The notes under the pieces were generated by a model. That model ran no database searches and was not told where the DNA came from. It saw nothing but the letters and a program-made list of their open reading frames with translations. Made by a program: the position numbers and the translations under genes. DNA of 63,201 bases, the filler included, from Candidatus Babelota bacterium (GTDB lineage: Bacteria; JAGOBX01): NCBI GenBank assembly GCA_017999075.1. It is 13 parts of 13 records of this genome, joined end to end, with 100 filler letters (N's around TTAATTAATTAA, not from the genome) between each part and the next. Parts side by side here need not be neighbours in the genome. Positions count along the whole stretch, not along the records: positions 36,157 to 38,800 come from JAGOBX010000569.1; 12 more parts are not named here. The stretch is one strand, 5' to 3'. Below are positions 11,992 to 59,672 of the stretch, one piece after another; position 1 is the stretch's first letter; the number at the start of each line of letters is the position of its first letter.

Positions 11992-12091
11992 NNNNNNNNN
12001 NNNNNNNNNNNNNNNNNNNNNNNNNNNNNNNNNNNTTAATTAATTAANNNNNNNNNNNNNNNNNNNNNNNNNNNNNNNNNNNNNNNNNNNN
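11992..12091. other. Artificial contig spacer
   Basis: N44-TTAATTAATTAA-N44 (stops in all six frames). Confidence 0.98.
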
Positions 12092-24034: not shown

Positions 24035-24134
24035 NNNNNNNNNNNNNNNNNNNNNNNNNNNNNNNNNNNNNNNNNNNNTTAATTAATTAANNNNNNNNNN
24101 NNNNNNNNNNNNNNNNNNNNNNNNNNNNNNNNNN
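24035..24134. other. Artificial contig spacer
   Basis: N44-TTAATTAATTAA-N44. Confidence 0.98.
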
Positions 24135-26696: not shown

Positions 26697-26800
26697 CAAA
26701 AATATGTAAACCGGTAAAATTTTTGAATTGTTCATGTTTATTATTGGTAAATTCTGCCCAACTGTTTTATGATTTTTTTTCAATTAAAGGATTTAAATAT

Positions 26801-28216
26801 ATGTCTATAAAAGATTTGAATTTTCAAAAAAAAATAGTTTTTTCACGCGCCGACAGAGTTGCAGAACAAATAAAACGTGAAATTTCATCAATAATTCTTA
26901 ATAAAATGAAAAATCCTAATATTGGATTTGTAACAGTAACAAAAGTAAAATTGTCTAAAGATTTAAAAATCGCAAAAGTCTATGTAAGTGTTTTCGGTAA
27001 AACAAATGAAAAAACAAAAACAATAGAAACATTAAATGAAGCACAAGATTTTATAAAGTCACAATTGTCAAAAAAAATAATTTTAAAATATATGCCTGCC
27101 GTGAAATTTTTTTTAGATGAAACTCTTGATTACACTGAAAATATATCAAATATGTTAAACAAAATTAAAATAGAGGAGAATGCTAAGTTGAATATGGAAC
27201 TGATTTTAAATGAAGAAGACAATACAAAATTAAAATCTATTAATGAAAAAATAATAAATTCTGAGAAAATATTATTAACCTCTCATTCAAAAACCGATGG
27301 TGATGCTATAGGCTGCGTTTTATCAATGTATAACTATATTTCAGGCTTGAATAAAAAAGTTACTGCTGTTATTGAAGGCGGTTGCCCGCAGTATCTCGGT
27401 TGGCTTCCTGACAGCGGATTGGTTGAGGATAACAAAAATATATTACTTGACAGGCAATTTGATTTGATAATATGCATTGATACAAATTTTGATAAACGCG
27501 TCGGGTATCCGTTTGAATTATTTGAAAAATATATATATGAAAACAAATTAGTAATTATTGATCATCATAAAGATACTGTTAATGATTCTGAGATAAAAAT
27601 TGTTAAATCTAACGCATCGTCAACTGGCGAACTTCTGTATCATTTTTTTAAAATAAATGATATTCCATTAAATGATAAAATAGCAATATATTTATATGTA
27701 GCTATCATTACAGATACGTGGATGTTCAGTCAGGAAAATACTATGTCATCAACTATGGCAGTAGCCTCTGAATTATTAAAGTTTGATACAGTGAAACCAT
27801 ATTTTATAACTTCAAAACTTTTTGAAAATAAATCATTGATGCAGACAAAATTACTTGGAAAACTTATAGAAACAATAGAATTTGATGAGAAAAATAAAAT
27901 ATCGTACGGATATATTACTAAAAAAATGTTTGACGAAACCTCCACTGGAGATAATGATACTGAAGGATTTGTAAATACTTTAAGATCAGTACGGGGTAGT
28001 AGAATCGCTGTTTTATTTAAAGAAATAAAACCAGGATTGATTAAAGCTAATTTAAGGTCAAAAGATACTTTTGACTTGTTGCCAATTGTAAGAAAATTCG
28101 GAGGCGGCGGACACAGCAAAGCTGCAGGGTTTACTACCGATAAACCCCTTGATATAATAATAACTGAATTATTAACTGAATTAAAGTTAAACTTAAATTT
28201 AAATTTAAATAAGTAA
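26801..28216 (+). CDS. rbfA: RbfA fused to a DHH/DHHA1 phosphoesterase (NrnA-like)
   Basis: RADRVAEQIKREIS...VTVTKVKLSKDLKIAKVYVS...KYMPAVKFFLD (RbfA) continues in frame into SHSKTDGDAIG, IIDHH, ASSTGE, IITDT, LRSK and FGGGGHSKAAG (DHH). AAGGA SD before ATG 26801. Confidence 0.9.
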   Translation: MSIKDLNFQKKIVFSRADRVAEQIKREISSIILNKMKNPNIGFVTVTKVKLSKDLKIAKVYVSVFGKTNEKTKTIETLNEAQDFIKSQLSKKIILKYMPAVKFFLDETLDYTENISNMLNKIKIEENAKLNMELILNEEDNTKLKSINEKIINSEKILLTSHSKTDGDAIGCVLSMYNYISGLNKKVTAVIEGGCPQYLGWLPDSGLVEDNKNILLDRQFDLIICIDTNFDKRVGYPFELFEKYIYENKLVIIDHHKDTVNDSEIKIVKSNASSTGELLYHFFKINDIPLNDKIAIYLYVAIITDTWMFSQENTMSSTMAVASELLKFDTVKPYFITSKLFENKSLMQTKLLGKLIETIEFDEKNKISYGYITKKMFDETSTGDNDTEGFVNTLRSVRGSRIAVLFKEIKPGLIKANLRSKDTFDLLPIVRKFGGGGHSKAAGFTTDKPLDIIITELLTELKLNLNLNLNK

Positions 28217-36056: not shown

Positions 36057-36156
36057 NNNNNNNNNNNNNNNNNNNNNNNNNNNNNNNNNNNNNNNNNNNN
36101 TTAATTAATTAANNNNNNNNNNNNNNNNNNNNNNNNNNNNNNNNNNNNNNNNNNNN
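36057..36156. other. Artificial contig spacer
   Basis: N44-TTAATTAATTAA-N44. Confidence 0.98.
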
Positions 36157-36230
36157 GTATAGCGAAACCCTGTTATGCGGAAATCAGCCTTTCAGCTGTT
36201 TCTTAAGGAGCTTTGCTCGCTATACCGCAT
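36157..36230. repeat. Inverted repeat / partial attC-like site
   Basis: GTATAGCGA (36157) and TCGCTATAC (36217-36225) are inverted; contains a core-like GTTATGC at 36172-36178 (GCATAAC on the minus strand). Confidence 0.4.
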
Positions 36231-36358
36231 TTTTTTAATTTAAAAAGTCTTTACAAAACAATGCCACACTTCAAAATTATTCAGGTATTGTTATAATTTT
36301 TAATTTTTCAAATAACGCTTTTTTATTATCCACTAATTTACGAAAGTAAATTATTTTT

Positions 36359-36387
36359 TTGTTTTGTATAATCTAATAATATATAAT
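36359..36387 (+). promoter_or_regulatory. Candidate cassette (Pc-like) promoter
   Basis: TTGTTT-17 nt-TATAAT about 33 nt upstream of the first cassette junction. The region is AT-rich, so a chance match is possible. Confidence 0.35.
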
Positions 36388-36419
36388 TTTTGTTATTTTA
36401 GAGAGTAGTATAAAAAAAC

Positions 36420-37864
36420 GATAGACGACAGATTTTTTTAGGAGGAAATCGAAATGAAAAAAATGGAAATTTTAGTGATACTGTTTTTTATATTCTTAAT
36501 ATATTTTAATTCAAAAAATTCGGCTATATCAGAAACAATTCAAAATAAAGATAATAACACAATTAAATTGTCAGATAAGCAATTTACATTTGAAGCAGAT
36601 AATTATATCCAACCAAATTGTAATGTTTTTTTTTCAGATGACATAAATGGTGCACAAAAGTTAAATATATTATTCGATTCACCAGATAAAGATTCAGTAA
36701 ATGATAAAGAACTATTAGACACAGTAAGATGCGGATTAAAGAAAACCAAACATAATAAGAACTCCATTTTACGTTGGTTAGGGAATAAATATATTTGGGG
36801 TAAATCACCACAGAATAAATATGCAATTGAGATAATGTATCATGCAAGTTCATCTGACGAGCGAGAAATACGTGGCGCAGCAATATATTTTGGGTTATCC
36901 GTGACGGAAAATAAAACAGAAAATATATTTAAAGCGTTAGTTGATTCATGTATGAAAAGTAAAGACTGGAACGATGTTGGCCGAGCTATTTGGGGTTGCA
37001 GGCAAGATAAGAATAAATTATTACCATATTTAGAACCATATATAAAAAGCAACGATGATGAAATCAAGCAAGTGGCGATAGCTTTTAAAAATGAAATTAT
37101 TGGAACTGAAGAATTCAGAGTTTGGCAAGCAAGGAAAATTAAAAATGACGCGGCAATAAAATATAAAGAAATATTGCCAAAATTAAAAGCTGATTTTATT
37201 AAAGGCGATTTCCATAAACAAAAAATTGTCCTCGAATATTTCGGGAAAAATCAAGACATATTAACACAAATGGATGATTCTTTTTTAGAAGGTTGGGGAA
37301 GGTGTGTTAATCATCCAGATGTGGCAGTGCGTCGGGAAACAGCAAGAATTGTTGGAAGTTTTTGGATTTGGCATGCAAAAGAACAATCGCCAAAAGCAAT
37401 TGATATAATTTATGAATTATCAAATGATACTGACGTTGATGTTGTTGGAAATGCAGTATATAATGGGTTATCAACTATAAGAGATAAAAACGATAAAATT
37501 GTAAATCAACTTTTAAATATTGCAAAACGATATTATAATAATGAAAAATATAATAATGGACGTTTCTTTAATAATAATTATAAAAGATGTTTTTTGGGGT
37601 TGAAAAATAAAAAATACGAATGTTCTATATTGCTTGAAAAAGAAATTGAGCAAAATCATACTGACCCTAAAATATGGTATCCAGCTTATGGAGTGTATAA
37701 AGATTTTATAGGTGGGGAACCATCAAATTTGACTAAAGAACAAAAATTATATGTTGAAAATAAAAATAAATAAAAATCCGTCGTCTATCTTCATCCTGTC
37801 CCTCGTGCCTTTGGCACGGCGGCTTTGCCGTCATCCGCTCTGCGAGCGGACGAGGACAGGACGT
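36420..37864 (+). mobile_element. Integron-like gene cassette 1 (HEAT-repeat gene)
   Basis: Left end GATAGACGACAGATTTTT (36420-36437) is 17/18 complementary to AAAAATCCGTCGTCTATC (37772-37789) right after the stop codon, followed by an attC-like hairpin. Confidence 0.75.
36454..37773 (+). CDS. Exported HEAT-repeat protein of unknown function
   Basis: AGGAGG SD; signal peptide; duplicated module (LGNKYIWGKSPQNKYAIEIMY...GAAIYFGLS and VGSFWIWHAKEQSPKAIDIIY...GNAVYNGLS). Confidence 0.7.
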   Translation: MKKMEILVILFFIFLIYFNSKNSAISETIQNKDNNTIKLSDKQFTFEADNYIQPNCNVFFSDDINGAQKLNILFDSPDKDSVNDKELLDTVRCGLKKTKHNKNSILRWLGNKYIWGKSPQNKYAIEIMYHASSSDEREIRGAAIYFGLSVTENKTENIFKALVDSCMKSKDWNDVGRAIWGCRQDKNKLLPYLEPYIKSNDDEIKQVAIAFKNEIIGTEEFRVWQARKIKNDAAIKYKEILPKLKADFIKGDFHKQKIVLEYFGKNQDILTQMDDSFLEGWGRCVNHPDVAVRRETARIVGSFWIWHAKEQSPKAIDIIYELSNDTDVDVVGNAVYNGLSTIRDKNDKIVNQLLNIAKRYYNNEKYNNGRFFNNNYKRCFLGLKNKKYECSILLEKEIEQNHTDPKIWYPAYGVYKDFIGGEPSNLTKEQKLYVENKNK

Positions 37865-37871
37865 GTTACAC
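37783..37871 (+). repeat. attC-like recombination site
   Basis: GTCTATC-TTCAT-CCTGTCC-[C]-TCG...CGA-GGACAGG-ACGT-GTTACAC, 89 bp, with three internal mini-hairpins; a near-identical copy lies at 52797. Confidence 0.75.
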
Positions 37872-37907
37872 GCCATTTCGCAAAAAAAATGAAATACAAG
37901 ATAATTG

Positions 37908-37936
37908 TTGACAAAAAGCACACAATGTGGTAGTCT
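37908..37936 (+). promoter_or_regulatory. TA operon promoter with palindromic operator
   Basis: TTGACA-17 nt-TAGTCT; CACA-A-TGTG palindrome (37921-37929) in the spacer; ATG 6 nt after the -10 box. Confidence 0.6.
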
Positions 37937-37942
37937 TACTAT

Positions 37943-38227
37943 ATGAAATTGATATTATGGAATTCAGATAAAAATAAAAAATTAAAAGTTGAGCGTGGAA
38001 TTTGTTTTGAAGATATATTATATTACACTGAAAATGAACTAATAATAGACATCATACAAAATCCGAATATAGATAAATATAATAGGCAGAAAATTTATTT
38101 GATAAACATTAATAATTATGTTTATTTAGTGCCATTTGTCGAAGAAGCCGAATATGTATTTTTAAAAACAATAATTCCAAGCAGAAAATACACTAAATTA
38201 TATTTAGGAGTGGATACAGATGAATAA
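37943..38227 (+). CDS. BrnT-like (DUF497/DUF4258-type) toxin
   Basis: WNSDKNKKLKVERGICFEDI...YVYLVPFVE...FLKTIIPSRK. Confidence 0.8.
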   Translation: MKLILWNSDKNKKLKVERGICFEDILYYTENELIIDIIQNPNIDKYNRQKIYLININNYVYLVPFVEEAEYVFLKTIIPSRKYTKLYLGVDTDE

Positions 38228-38507
38228 TAGAAAAATAAAATTAGATAAGGAAGAACAAGATATTTTAGAAAGCGTTGAAAATGGTGAATGGATTTCAATT
38301 CCAAATGTTAAAACAAAAATAAAAAAATATGCTGATTATGCGCGAAACACACTAAAAAAAGATAAGCGTTTAAATATCAGAATGTCAGGTGTTGACTTAG
38401 AAATGATACAAAGAAAAGCAATTGAAGAGGGAATTCCATATCAAACACTTATATCAAGTTTAATTCATAAATATGTTTCAGGACGACTTGTTGAAAGTCG
38501 AGTATGA
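38220..38507 (+). CDS. Cognate antitoxin with C-terminal RHH/CopG-like domain
   Basis: LDKEEQDILESVENGEW...KKDKRLNIRMS...KAIEEGIPYQTLISSLIHKYV; overlaps the toxin stop. Confidence 0.8.
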   Translation: MNNRKIKLDKEEQDILESVENGEWISIPNVKTKIKKYADYARNTLKKDKRLNIRMSGVDLEMIQRKAIEEGIPYQTLISSLIHKYVSGRLVESRV

Positions 38508-38523
38508 AACAAGATGCGAAACC

Positions 38524-38603
38524 GGCGTGTAAACTTTTAAGGCGTAAACGCTGTTGCGGTCAAAAAGAAAAACAGTATGATATAAGCAACTGCGTTTTAC
38601 GCC
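38524..38603 (+). repeat. Degenerate attC-like hairpin
   Basis: GGCGTGTAAAC, then GGCGTAAACGCTGTTGC...GCAACTGCGTTTTACGCC inverted arms; no GTT core downstream. Confidence 0.5.
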
Positions 38604-38800
38604 AAGATGAACGAAGCCGCGTCTGAACCCTAAAATATTATTAGTGGAATTTGAATCGTTTCTGATAAAGTGGGATAAAAAAAATCTGAAGATAAAATCA
38701 CAAATTTATAGACTGGATAGCAGAAAATCAGATAAATTATTCTTGAGAAAGATTATAATATAATTGCACAGAGGAATTGCCGTAAGAAAACAAACTGTTA

Positions 38801-51957: not shown

Positions 51958-52158
51958 TTATTCGCGGAAAAAAAATTTCCCCGCTAATTTACGCGAATCT
52001 ACGCTAATAATAATATAGTTATAAAAATATATCTAATATGCATTCAATTTATTTATTACTTTATTCTTTTATTGTTTTTGTTTCTTTATTCGCGATAATT
52101 CGCGGGAATTCGCGGGAGAAAAATTTCCCCGCTAATTTACGCGAATCTACGCTAATAA
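51958..52158. repeat. GxxExxY-associated repeat: 40-bp direct repeat with 10-bp periodic palindromic units
   Basis: AAAAATTTCCCCGCTAATTTACGCGAATCTACGCTAATAA occurs exactly at 51971-52010 and 52119-52158. It is preceded by inverted ATTCGCG units (one before copy 1, three at 52088-52117). Confidence 0.85.
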
Positions 52159-52459
52159 GTCATTGCAAACCTTTTCCATTCCAATTTTTCTTTACAACCA
52201 AAATTTATTAATAACCCCACTTTATACTTCGTAATATTCAAATAATTCAGCATTATACTTTCTTCTATTTTAGTCAATTTTTCCATCACTTTTATTTCAC
52301 TGACAATTTTTGATTCAATAACTAAATCCGGTTTATAGCATTTTTTTAAAATTATACCTTTATAATCAATTTTTAATTCTTTCTGACTTTCATAAACAAT
52401 ATTTTTTTTCTTCAATTCAATTTCCATGGCTTCCTGATATACAGCTTCAAGAAACCCAG
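52152..52459 (-). CDS. GxxExxY protein (PD-(D/E)XK-like), 5' truncated
   Basis: Extending the frame to the contig edge gives GFLEAVYQEAMEIEL; then YKPDLVIESKIVSEIK...LNYL...VGLLINFG. Confidence 0.9.
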
Positions 52460-52770: not shown

Positions 52771-52796
52771 GCGATATAAAAAAAATAGACACAATC

Positions 52797-52868
52797 GGCT
52801 AACTTCATCCTGTCCCTCGTGCATCAGAGATCTGCGAGCGGGAGGACGGACAGGACGTGCCCTTATCT
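52797..52868 (+). repeat. attC-like site, second copy
   Basis: GGCTAAC-TTCAT-CCTGTCC-[C]-TCGTGC...TCTGCGAGCGG...GGACAGG-ACGTG shares long identical blocks with 37783-37871; the core is degenerate (CTTATCT). Confidence 0.7.
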
Positions 52869-53838
52869 GCCATTAATTCCTAATATTTCGAAGGAAATTA
52901 TAACGGCGGCATCAATGTAAAAAGTATTTTATATAAAATAATGAACTATATTGGAGGAACACAAAATGAGCGATAAAGAACAGAATATTCACGATTTTGA
53001 TATTACATTAATTTGTGAATATTTTTCAAGTATGGATCGGCAAGGTCCAGGAAGCAAGGAAACAACAATAAAAGCTTTGAGTTTTATTGATAATATAGAC
53101 GAAAAATTAAACATCGTTGATCTTGGTTGTGGTTCTGGAAATCAGACTATAGTTTTGGCACAAAATACTCAAGGGAATATAACAGCTATTGATTTATTCC
53201 CTGGTTTTATCAACAAACTAAATGACAATGCACAAAAATTGAATCTTCAAAGCAGAGTTAAAGGCGTTATTGGTTCAATGGATAAACTTGATTTTCAATT
53301 AAATGAATTAGACCTTATTTGGAGCGAAGGAGCAATATATAATATAGGTTTTGAAAAAGGCATGAATTATTGGAATAAGTTTTTGAAAAAAGGTGGTTAT
53401 GTTGCTGTTAGTGAAGCATCATGGTTTACAGAAGAACGGCCAAAAGAAATATTTGAGTTTTGGAATGAAGCATATCCTGAAATAGACACTATTCCAAATA
53501 AAATTGCTCAAATGCAAAAAGCAGGATATATTGTGACTGCATCATTCATATTACCTGAGGTTTGCTGGACTGAAAATTTCTTTAAACCAGCAATAACAGC
53601 ACAAAAAATATTTTTGGATAAATACAAAGGTAATAAATCAGCCGAAGAATTTATAAAATACGAAAAACATCATGCCTTACTTTATGATAAATATAAAGAT
53701 TTTTATGGGTATGTATTTTATATTGGGAAGAAAATATAGAAGGTTTGTCATCATCCGTGCTGTGCTGATGGCTAATGTAACTGAATCAACGGCATATAAC
53801 TTTTTCGGTTTTTTGATTGTACTTCTCATAAAAAGCCG
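52862..53838 (+). mobile_element. Integron-like gene cassette (methyltransferase), decayed
   Basis: Left end CTTATCTGCCATTAATTC (52862-52879) is 14/18 complementary to GAATCAACGGCATATAAC (53783-53800), followed by a 5-nt spacer and a CGGTTTTT...AAAAGCCG stem. Confidence 0.55.
52966..53739 (+). CDS. Class I SAM-dependent methyltransferase
   Basis: GGAGG SD before ATG 52966; [27 protein letters not shown] and YGYVFYIG. Confidence 0.88.
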
Positions 53839-53958
53839 TGCCCGATAAATATACTGGATAATAATTTTTATTTTGTAAACTAATTATTTCAAAGCATAAT
53901 AATCTCTGAAATCCCATGGAAAATCAATAAATATAATATAATATTTAGAGAAATGCTC

Positions 53959-57917: not shown

Positions 57918-58922
57918 ACTTGATATAATTAATATTTTTAATAAGAGTAATGCTGTAAAACTATGGAATAATTTAAGAGTTTGTAGTGTTGACGGAACTA
58001 CTTTTACACTAAATAAATCAAAGGAAATAGTGGCTGAATTTCCGCTTTTAAATAAAGCAAGATTTCCTAAAATGATTGCCTGTGTTTTATACGATATTTA
58101 TTCTAAAATACCGTTAGATATTGAAACTGGTAATTATACTTGCGGAGAAAGAACGTTATTAGCTGAAATTATTGAAAACTTAAAAAATAATACTCTGTTA
58201 TTACTCGATAGGGGCCACCATGCTTATTTGGATATATCATAAATTAAATCTATATTATTAATTATATTATGAGAATCGGAACTCGTTTGAAATATAAAAT
58301 ATTAAAAAAAATTAAGCGCGATGATTTGATAATTGAACTTACCGCTTGCAGACAAACCATGAATAATTGTAAGGCTAATTTATCGGAATACGAATTAAGC
58401 TCTATGTCGGAAAAAATGCAATTACGTCTAATAAAAACAACGATGAAAGGATTTAGAACCAGATATATTATAACATCGTTAATTGATTTTAAAAAATATC
58501 ATTATAACGACATTTGTAAACTATACTGTGACCGTCGGATTATTGAAGATTTTTATCGTGATTTTAAGCATATTCTTAGGATCGAACAATTTCATTCTCA
58601 ATATATTGATGGTATTTATCAAGAACTTTTTGCTGCTATGATTTTGACTATAATTCTTCAAAAGTATATTTTTACAGCTTCTGATTTATATGAGATTCCT
58701 TATGAACAAATTAGTTTTAAAAAAACTTTTAATCTTTTATCAGATATTATTTTATTATTAAATTTTGCGGATAATAATAAAGAGTTAATAGAAGATTTGT
58801 TTTTAAAATTTATCGCTTTCTCTTCACAAAAAAAACAGGTCGGACACGCATTATGAAAGAATAATGTTTAGAAAAACTCGTTGTATCGATTACAAATCAC
58901 GATGATAGAGTTAATGCCATTG
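57918..58922 (+). mobile_element. IS4-family element remnant with right terminal inverted repeat
   Basis: Transposase remnant followed by GAGTTAATGCCATTG (58908-58922), resembling IS4-type ends. Confidence 0.6.
57919..58856 (+). pseudogene. IS4-family DDE transposase, 5' truncated and frameshifted
   Basis: Frame 1 carries WNNLRVCSVDGT and LLLLDRG, then stops at 58242. A second frame carries the Y-(2)-R-(3)-E-(6)-K motif LYCDRRIIEDFYRDFK. Confidence 0.85.
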
Positions 58923-59391: not shown

Positions 59392-59552
59392 AATGACACC
59401 ATCCTTATATAATATAAAATTAAAATGTCATTTTAAGAGAAATAAGATTATTTAAATACAGGTAAAAATCAAATCAGCTGAAAATGTATTTAACAATTGA
59501 ATTATTCTGTGGCCACAAATATAATGTTATGAAAATGCAGCTTAGCGGTTTA

Positions 59553-59635
59553 GTTCAACTCGGATTTTTACCTCACGCTGCGCGCTGCTGCTTCGCAGTC
59601 ACTCACTTCGTTCGTGAGTAAAAAGCCTGTTTAGG
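59553..59635 (+). repeat. attC-like site upstream of the integrase remnant
   Basis: GTTCAAC (RYYYAAC)-TCGGA-TTTTTAC-[C]-TCACG...CGTGA-GTAAAAA-GCCT-GTT; same spacing as 37783-37871 with unrelated sequence. Confidence 0.7.
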
Positions 59636-59672
59636 GCTTAGGACAGTGCTATTTTTAAACAGGGTGATCCAA

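Follow-up and report, generated by a model that had tools for sequence, protein, structure and literature searches.

The window, that is, the whole 63,201-nt stretch of Candidatus Babelota bacterium DNA analyzed here, consists of 13 draft contigs (three of ~12 kb and ten of ~2.6 kb) joined by N linkers around TTAATTAATTAA. Linker coordinates include 11992-12091, 24035-24134, and 36057-36156, and no feature that crosses a linker is real; the regular 110-140-nt "repeats" returned by a repeat finder were these N runs around TTAATTAATTAA, and hence were rejected as genomic repeats. Our subject is a gene cassette on the 2644-nt contig at 36157-38800. Its single open reading frame (ORF), a weak HEAT-repeat look-alike, starts behind a GAT core and ends at an attC hairpin (site A), which is followed by a BrnT/BrnA toxin-antitoxin cassette and by a divergent hairpin (site C). 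Because the window is made of joined contigs, the further sites at 52797, 53794, and 59553 lie on two other contigs. The features are collected in Table 1.

Table 1. Coordinates of the HEAT cassette, its flanks, and the other cassettes and sites of the window (a vertical bar marks the crossover point)
Feature	Coordinates	Strand	Description
Left cassette boundary	36420-36437	+	reads GATAGACGACAGATTTTT; G|ATAGACGACAGATTTTT, extended R'; crossover after G36420
Right extended R'' (inverse core)	37772-37789	+	reads AAAAATCCGTCGTCTATC; ends TATC, the ATC variant of the AAC triplet
Cassette cargo ORF	36454-37773	+	439 aa; hydrophobic N-terminus; weak HEAT-repeat likeness
AT-rich left flank, not an attC	36157-36419	+	ends ...AAAAAAACG directly before the crossover
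attC site A	37777-37877	+	L''/L' stem with one unpaired C; three-hairpin center; crossover G37865|T37866
Site A, parts		+	GTCTATC 37783-37789; TTCAT 37790-37794; CCTGTCC 37795-37801; unpaired C; three inner hairpins
Site A, right half		+	GGACAGG 37854-37860; ACGT 37861-37864; G|TTACAC 37865-37871
Next cassette	37866-38534	+	BrnT-like toxin 37943-38227; CopG/BrnA-like antitoxin 38220-38507 (Pfam)
Site C, divergent attC-like hairpin	38524-38615	+	R'' GTGTAAAC; 5-nt spacers; long imperfect stem; followed by GAA, not GWT
Site B, on another contig	52791-52874	+	R1 41.1 bits; same family; internal deletion (two inner hairpins lost)
SAM (S-adenosylmethionine)-methyltransferase cassette	52863-53800	+	starts TTATCTGCC, ends GGCATATAAC (Pfam)
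Site D, short attC resembling a 59-base element	53794-53850	+	TAAC, 5-nt spacer, bulged stem, 5-nt spacer; then G|ATAAAT
Site E, on a third contig	59547-59642	+	degenerate family member; R2 27.5 bits, E 4.9e-4

The HEAT gene is bracketed by two 18-mers, at 36420 and 37772, that are complementary at 17 of 18 positions, just as a preliminary description of this DNA had stated. Three inverted pairs of at least 17/18 were present in the 2644-nt contig, as against none in each of 20 mononucleotide shuffles, and the stop codon of the cargo ORF overlaps the right repeat. Both ends depart from the conserved AAC/GTT triplets, reading ATC and GAT, with the G and the third base kept. The 439-aa product scored 26.8 bits with Pfam HEAT_2, under the 27.7 cut-off, and no homologue was found in the loci retrieved for the site family from metagenomes and genomes.

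The preliminary description had taken the compensated GAT/ATC change and the 18-bp pairing as distinctive of this cassette. The core and the extended pairing both stood; however, about 12 of the 18 paired bases belong to an extended R box common to the whole family, and the A/T runs are leader and tail sequence shared with other cassettes. One retrieved cassette (in L006) has the 5' leader and R'' flank of the HEAT cassette but carries three unrelated genes, its leader coming after an attC and before these different genes. The same R'' flank also lies 3' of other cargo genes in L006 and, with one base changed, in L004. Since leader and R'' flank recur in L006, part of the 18-bp pairing is a common end module and is not private to the HEAT gene.

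Site A has the attC geometry claimed for it, with one peculiarity: its 4-nt right spacer is atypical. Directly before the crossover, 20 of 24 aligned family copies read ...ACGTGTCCG|, and site A is without four of these bases. It nevertheless scored 111.5 bits (E 2.6e-33) with R1, a covariance model that we built from 24 aligned sites; a broader model is called R2 below. The reconstituted attC of the HEAT cassette has a predicted fold of −43.8 kcal/mol on the bottom strand vs −37.6 kcal/mol on the top strand. Rfam gave nothing in the window at its gathering thresholds, and neither did a tRNA scan.

To the left of the crossover, the AT-rich flank is neither an attC nor demonstrable as an attI. 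Neither R1 nor R2 matched it, it contains no ORF that continues past the contig start, and its matches in two genomes that hold family sites (G001 and G002) were of low complexity only; against the attI region of G002 there was no real alignment beyond a short A-run and a CG motif. A promoter-like site at 36270-36297 (10/12, with TG ahead of the −10 hexamer) lies within the flank, which may be a candidate attI or the flank of a secondary site.

We then followed the site family beyond this contig. A pattern derived from the two similar window sites had two matches in the window and none in 100 shuffles. It matched four contigs of a species-representative genome collection, one of which (L004), from the AT-rich metagenome-assembled genome G001, has two sites. 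A looser pattern matched 44 contigs of a metagenome collection: 20 were AT-rich family members, 19 were GC-rich without a hairpin, and five were a single unrelated AT-rich sequence. A generic home-made attC finder missed known sites and was dropped, and only one site, in the genome G031, was taken from it. With R1 we obtained 68 distinct sites after de-duplication, from the window, 17 metagenome contigs, and three genomes; 23 of them have a GAT core, so that the model-based scan proposed in the preliminary description did yield more cassettes of this kind. G001 is the richest genome, with 21 sites by R2, and G002 has nine. The phylum of G001, G002, and a third genome, G003, is represented by only these three among the 199,900 species of the collection, and the host lineage is thus very thinly sampled.

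Family sites form same-strand arrays with a spacing of typically ~630-2400 nt. In each site, three inner hairpins sit on an outer stem that has one unpaired base. The recurring features are the extended R box, which covers ~12 bp (R'' ..TCGnnTAWC, R' G|WTAnnCGA..), an L stem carrying a single extrahelical base, the three-hairpin center, and a conserved ..TYCG directly 5' of the crossover. Over the 68 sites, the predicted structure has 96.1% of its cells paired, and in 25 of 26 pairs both sides vary, a result that none of 500 shuffles reached, in an alignment that was itself fitted to the model and so favors structure and pair counts. On one contig of G001 (C5; L076, 10622-13628), three family sites occur singly and in both orientations beside genes for an ammonium transporter, a Vsr endonuclease, and a MazF toxin; these three are dispersed cassettes outside long arrays.

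The other sites of the window proved to be more mixed than the preliminary description had proposed when it grouped five as one type. The sites at 37783 (A) and 52797 (B) match R1, and the one at 59553 (E) matches R2 only, and weakly; those at 53794 (D) and 38524 (C) match neither, and the attC-like status of site C is uncertain. In site B, R'' ends in TAAC, and a C takes the place of the G before the crossover. Site E is 79% identical to a site in L013 and adjoins IS4-like transposase fragments (Pfam). The BrnT/BrnA cassette between sites A and C starts with TTACACGCC and ends with GGCGTGTAAAC; these ends are complementary except for one extra A, and the start motif also follows attCs in L017 and G001.

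Does the core travel with the cassette? Across the 68 sites, the R'' triplet is AAC in 43, ATC in 24, and AAT in one, and the R' triplet is GTT in 41, GAT in 23, and something else in three, the last being cut by a contig end. In 36 pairs of neighboring sites, the 12 bases that follow the G of the upstream site were set against the 12 that precede the last C in the R'' of the downstream site. The start was the reverse complement of the cassette's own end at 9-11 of 12 bases in 33 of the 36 adjacent pairs (at 11/12 in 24 of them); the other three matched at 6-7, and at least two of these skip a weaker intervening site. By comparison, 4510 non-adjacent pairs had a mean match of 6.15, and only 5.4% reached 9. 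The second core base agreed in all 36 adjacent pairs (T in 26, A in 10), and GTT and GAT cassettes are interleaved within single arrays. At extension position 10, an A stands opposite a C in 31/36 pairs, giving a top-strand mismatch that becomes a G.T pair on the bottom strand. A tiny ORF-less cassette, ~50 nt plus its site, lies on contig C50 of G002 (L088, 12500-12720) and has a perfect 14/14 GAT/ATC match between start and end.

From three studies (wastewater, activated sludge, and digester), we took the Logan contigs of four runs and aligned them to contig 36157-38800; they placed the HEAT cassette in a second context. In run X2, the cassette comes after the 3' half of a family attC, and the divergence from the window falls exactly at 36419/36420, so that the cassette start assigned at 36420 recurs at the same base directly after an attC; runs X1 and X3 retain the AT-rich left flank. 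The methyltransferase cassette was found in three contexts. Besides the window, contig C246 of G001 encodes the methyltransferase at 94.6% identity over 167 aa behind a different attC, and in L017 a family attC comes after the cassette end, with a different cassette beyond it. As the second base is matched on both sides and the cassettes occur in different neighborhoods, W travels with the cassette and the crossover lies between G and W, as at the canonical G|TT. There is thus a standing natural G|WT polymorphism in this integron-type cassette family, with A in about one third. The suggestion that the system tolerates GWT cores was borne out in that G|WT is the normal state (23 GAT and 41 GTT of 68, compensated in 36/36 pairs); what did not hold is a separate kind of system, as the logic is of the integron type.

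Coverage in the run contigs was 60-87 over site A vs ~5 over the gene and flanks, so the site is multicopy. This depth, the position of sites directly after stop codons, and the single or both-orientation sites by amt, vsr, and mazF are what would favor reading the GC-rich hairpins as repeats resembling repetitive extragenic palindromes (REPs) or miniature inverted-repeat transposable elements (MITEs), or as terminators, with an incidental flanking inverted repeat. Such elements would not account for ends that are cassette-specific (33/36 vs 5.4% of controls, and W matched 36/36), for the same cassettes turning up in different neighborhoods with breaks exactly at G|W, or for one strand being used per array. 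No target duplication pattern of a MITE appeared in the flanks examined, no T-run follows site A, and a terminator scan found no terminator there. We therefore give this explanation almost no weight; the preliminary description had named a REP or MITE unrelated to gene boundaries as the alternative to its proposal, and the sites follow cassette logic instead.

The same depth profile bears on the contig itself. Contigs of ~2.6 kb that end in multicopy sequence, the odd 4-nt gap before the crossover of site A, and the fact that, among the contig pieces listed, none bridges 37854-37921 (40 further pieces lie outside that listing) could all reflect a chimeric join across a repeated attC, in which case the HEAT gene and the left repeat would not be contiguous with the site. 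A 1643-nt contig of run X1, however, spans 36200-37842 with one difference and so joins the left flank, gene, R'', and most of the site, and the left and right repeats match each other, unlike the product of a chimera. We consider a chimeric arrangement highly unlikely.

Taken together, 36421-37865 is very probably an integron-type gene cassette, made of one promoterless gene for a 439-aa HEAT-like protein and its own attC (~37777-37865). It is the first cassette of a small array, and the host is an AT-rich bacterium of wastewater and digester communities. By protein atlas, the nearest taxonomic clusters were Bacteroidota or Fusobacteriota, an ambiguous placement. For its movement we propose that the bottom strand of the attC would fold, with better pairing than the top strand (as predicted in the calculation above rather than by experiment), and that a tyrosine recombinase of the IntI kind would cleave the folded strand after the base opposite the G. 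One strand would be exchanged, replication would resolve the junction, and a match to the partner site would be needed only at the G and the bases 5' of it. GTT and GAT cassettes should therefore mix freely in one array.

Several observations weigh against this assignment. The DNA left of 36420 is, as described above, no attC, nor can it be demonstrated to be an attI. Several window sites look worn: site A has four nucleotides missing, site B has a deletion and a C for the G, and site C has the extra A and the GAA. The 2644-nt contig, which holds site A and the divergent site C, is of a length at which assembly across a multicopy site could produce chimeras. The 68 sites, with their model-fitted alignment, are not independent events either, as many loci come from few sample series. 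The check for a circular cassette junction that had been proposed was negative in the aligned run contigs, the material being contigs only, in which stretches lacking coverage have no significance. There was also no tyrosine recombinase in the 63-kb window by phmmer with Xer-like queries, and G001, G002, and G042 (a genome outside the phylum of G002) gave no match over the cut-off of the integron-integrase model TIGR02249, so that no canonical IntI was found in them. The contig starts only 263 nt left of the cassette, and absence of intI from the organism is not implied. A back-joint of 37987 to 37789, considered as a circle junction, was a low-complexity match to another cassette's end.

The recombinase of the array could be a canonical IntI elsewhere in the genome, or a short IntI-like enzyme as in two other genomes. 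In the first of these, contig C50 of G002 carries a frameshifted recombinase gene, then G|ATAACTGCCAT ~230 nt past the stop, which matches the R'' of the first site, and four same-strand sites that include the tiny ORF-less GAT/ATC cassette. In the second, contig C33 of G042 has an intact gene of 387 aa, G|TTATCCGCCATG ~160 nt past its stop, and an array of at least five cassettes with start/end complementarity. Both proteins can be aligned to VchIntIA left and right of its insert, of which they skip ~40-54 residues, and they score 167 and 189 bits vs the cut-off of 265. When aligned with five canonical IntI proteins of related genomes, six of seven short-type proteins were without ~40 residues present in the canonical ones; the seventh, from G010, keeps a short partial insert. 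We also observed that the short-type recombinases of G042, G052, and G064 (L120, L098, and L099) have an N-terminal extension of ~100 aa with a common motif, ..FP[FY]D..L...I[KR].I.GR.W..., which canonical IntI proteins are without.

These cases raise the possibility that the arrays are run by an IntI-like tyrosine recombinase without the IntI-specific domain, encoded co-directionally upstream of an insertion point 160-230 nt past its stop, and that they form an integron class of their own. In its favor are the two linked cases, each with the recombinase gene followed by a matched insertion point and an array, the skipped VchIntIA insert and the scores below the cut-off, the ~40 IntI-specific residues missing from six of seven proteins, the location of several homologues at contig ends, and the finding that none of the 120 homologues listed bears the name of integron integrase. 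Linked cases number only two, however, one of them (G002) with a frameshifted gene. In G003, the closest homologue adjoins tRNA genes and no array, and was rejected as an array integrase; G031 is unclear, as the start of its first cassette could not be matched. G001, with its 21 sites, has no homologue at E<=1e-25. Contig C290 of G060 is a clear cluster of attC sites without integrase (CALIN), with five family sites between thiF/JAB and gcpE and no recombinase beside them, and a canonical IntI fragment lies elsewhere in that genome. Canonical IntI is present in 14/80 related genomes, and the IntI-specific domain is reported, in the citing passage of PMC9668308, to be necessary for activity (Messier and Roy 2001). 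On balance, we regard a short recombinase as the motor of these arrays as rather doubtful. Twelve loci of ~3 kb around canonical IntI genes of related genomes contained no R1 site, their flanks being too short for inference.

Further recombinases were set aside as array integrases. The L015 recombinase fragment and its G001 homologue sit in phage-like modules (with an HTH [helix-turn-helix] gene, repeats, and a terminase-like gene), and a 391-aa recombinase on contig C249 of G001 is only 28% identical in the catalytic half. On the minus strand of L015 (1-1440), the array ends with G|ATACC, after which come an ORF6N-like fragment, a series of short direct repeats, an HTH gene, and the beginning of an integrase of phage type.

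How unusual is a G|WT family? According to Cury et al. (2016; PMC4889954), AAC/GTT are the most conserved positions of attC sites, and CALINs are clusters of attC sites without integrase. Compared with the sedentary chromosomal integrons and CALINs described there, the arrays studied here share the same-strand order, mostly one-gene promoterless cassettes, toxin-antitoxin cassettes, a folded end site with R and L boxes, an extrahelical base and a variable center, the lack of an integrase nearby, and highly similar sites within the family, as in large chromosomal arrays. They differ in the G|WT core (GAT in 23/68), the conserved R box of ~12 bp, the longer right spacer with its conserved TYCG, and the three-hairpin cloverleaf center.

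A GWT-tolerant integrase, which the preliminary description had offered as something new, is not new in principle. The core mutants reported by Frumerie et al. (2009; PMC2811028) showed that the second GTT position is tolerant, that T2->A2 is tolerated or raises IntI1 recombination, that GAT is a preferred secondary site, and that only the first base must be identical between partner sites. Their engineered attCaadA7 and attI1 sites resemble the cassettes studied here in the T-to-A change at the second GTT position, with the complement changed too. Those are laboratory class 1 sites, whereas here we see a natural polymorphism in about one third of a family from an uncultured lineage, with the two cores interleaved. 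Our search of a limited paper collection, supplementary attC tables aside, listed no paper describing attC families with natural GAT cores or arrays whose integrases are insert-less.

Ghaly et al. (2022; PMC9668308) restate that integron integrases are defined by the IntI-specific domain, which their activity requires. Set against canonical IntI (TIGR02249; VchIntIA 2a3v), the G002 and G042 recombinases have the catalytic residues, with a ..SPLD tail in G002 and an end in ..SPF in G042. They differ in the missing insert of ~40 residues, in scoring under the cut-off, in being encoded in the same direction as the cassettes, and, for some short-type enzymes, in the ~100-aa N-terminal extension. 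It is conceivable, if on present evidence improbable, that the G|WT family is an undescribed integron class whose integrase is an IntI relative without the IntI-specific domain, in a thinly sampled candidate phylum (three genomes) and at least one other phylum.

Textbooks and search models treat the GTT/AAC triplet as the anchor of attC recognition. Compensated GTT and GAT cassettes side by side confirm in nature what had been found in the laboratory, namely that partner sites need to agree at the first base only. Surveys that rely on AAC/GTT and on the IntI-specific domain may count too few of these cassettes and may class such arrays as integrase-less. If the short recombinase were indeed the integrase of these arrays, a domain held necessary for attC recombination would not be universal.

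Several further features of the window were noted. The contig end beyond site C (38586-38800) is multicopy in the runs that hold it, with a depth of 44-92 vs ~5-8 on neighboring genes, and it is a point of divergence for several loose ends; an insertion sequence or other repeat may end here, and the stretch was not in the retrieved loci. Upstream of site E lie the two ORFs (57919-58242 and 58269-58856) of a split IS4-like DDE transposase. Two 51-nt direct repeats (51960-52010 and 52108-52158), 96% alike and 148 nt apart, each with a short GC hairpin, lie upstream of a minus-strand ORF at 52152-52427. Lastly, a single ORF at 26723-28216 fuses a ribosome-binding factor A domain to a DHH/DHHA1 (NrnA-like) phosphoesterase.

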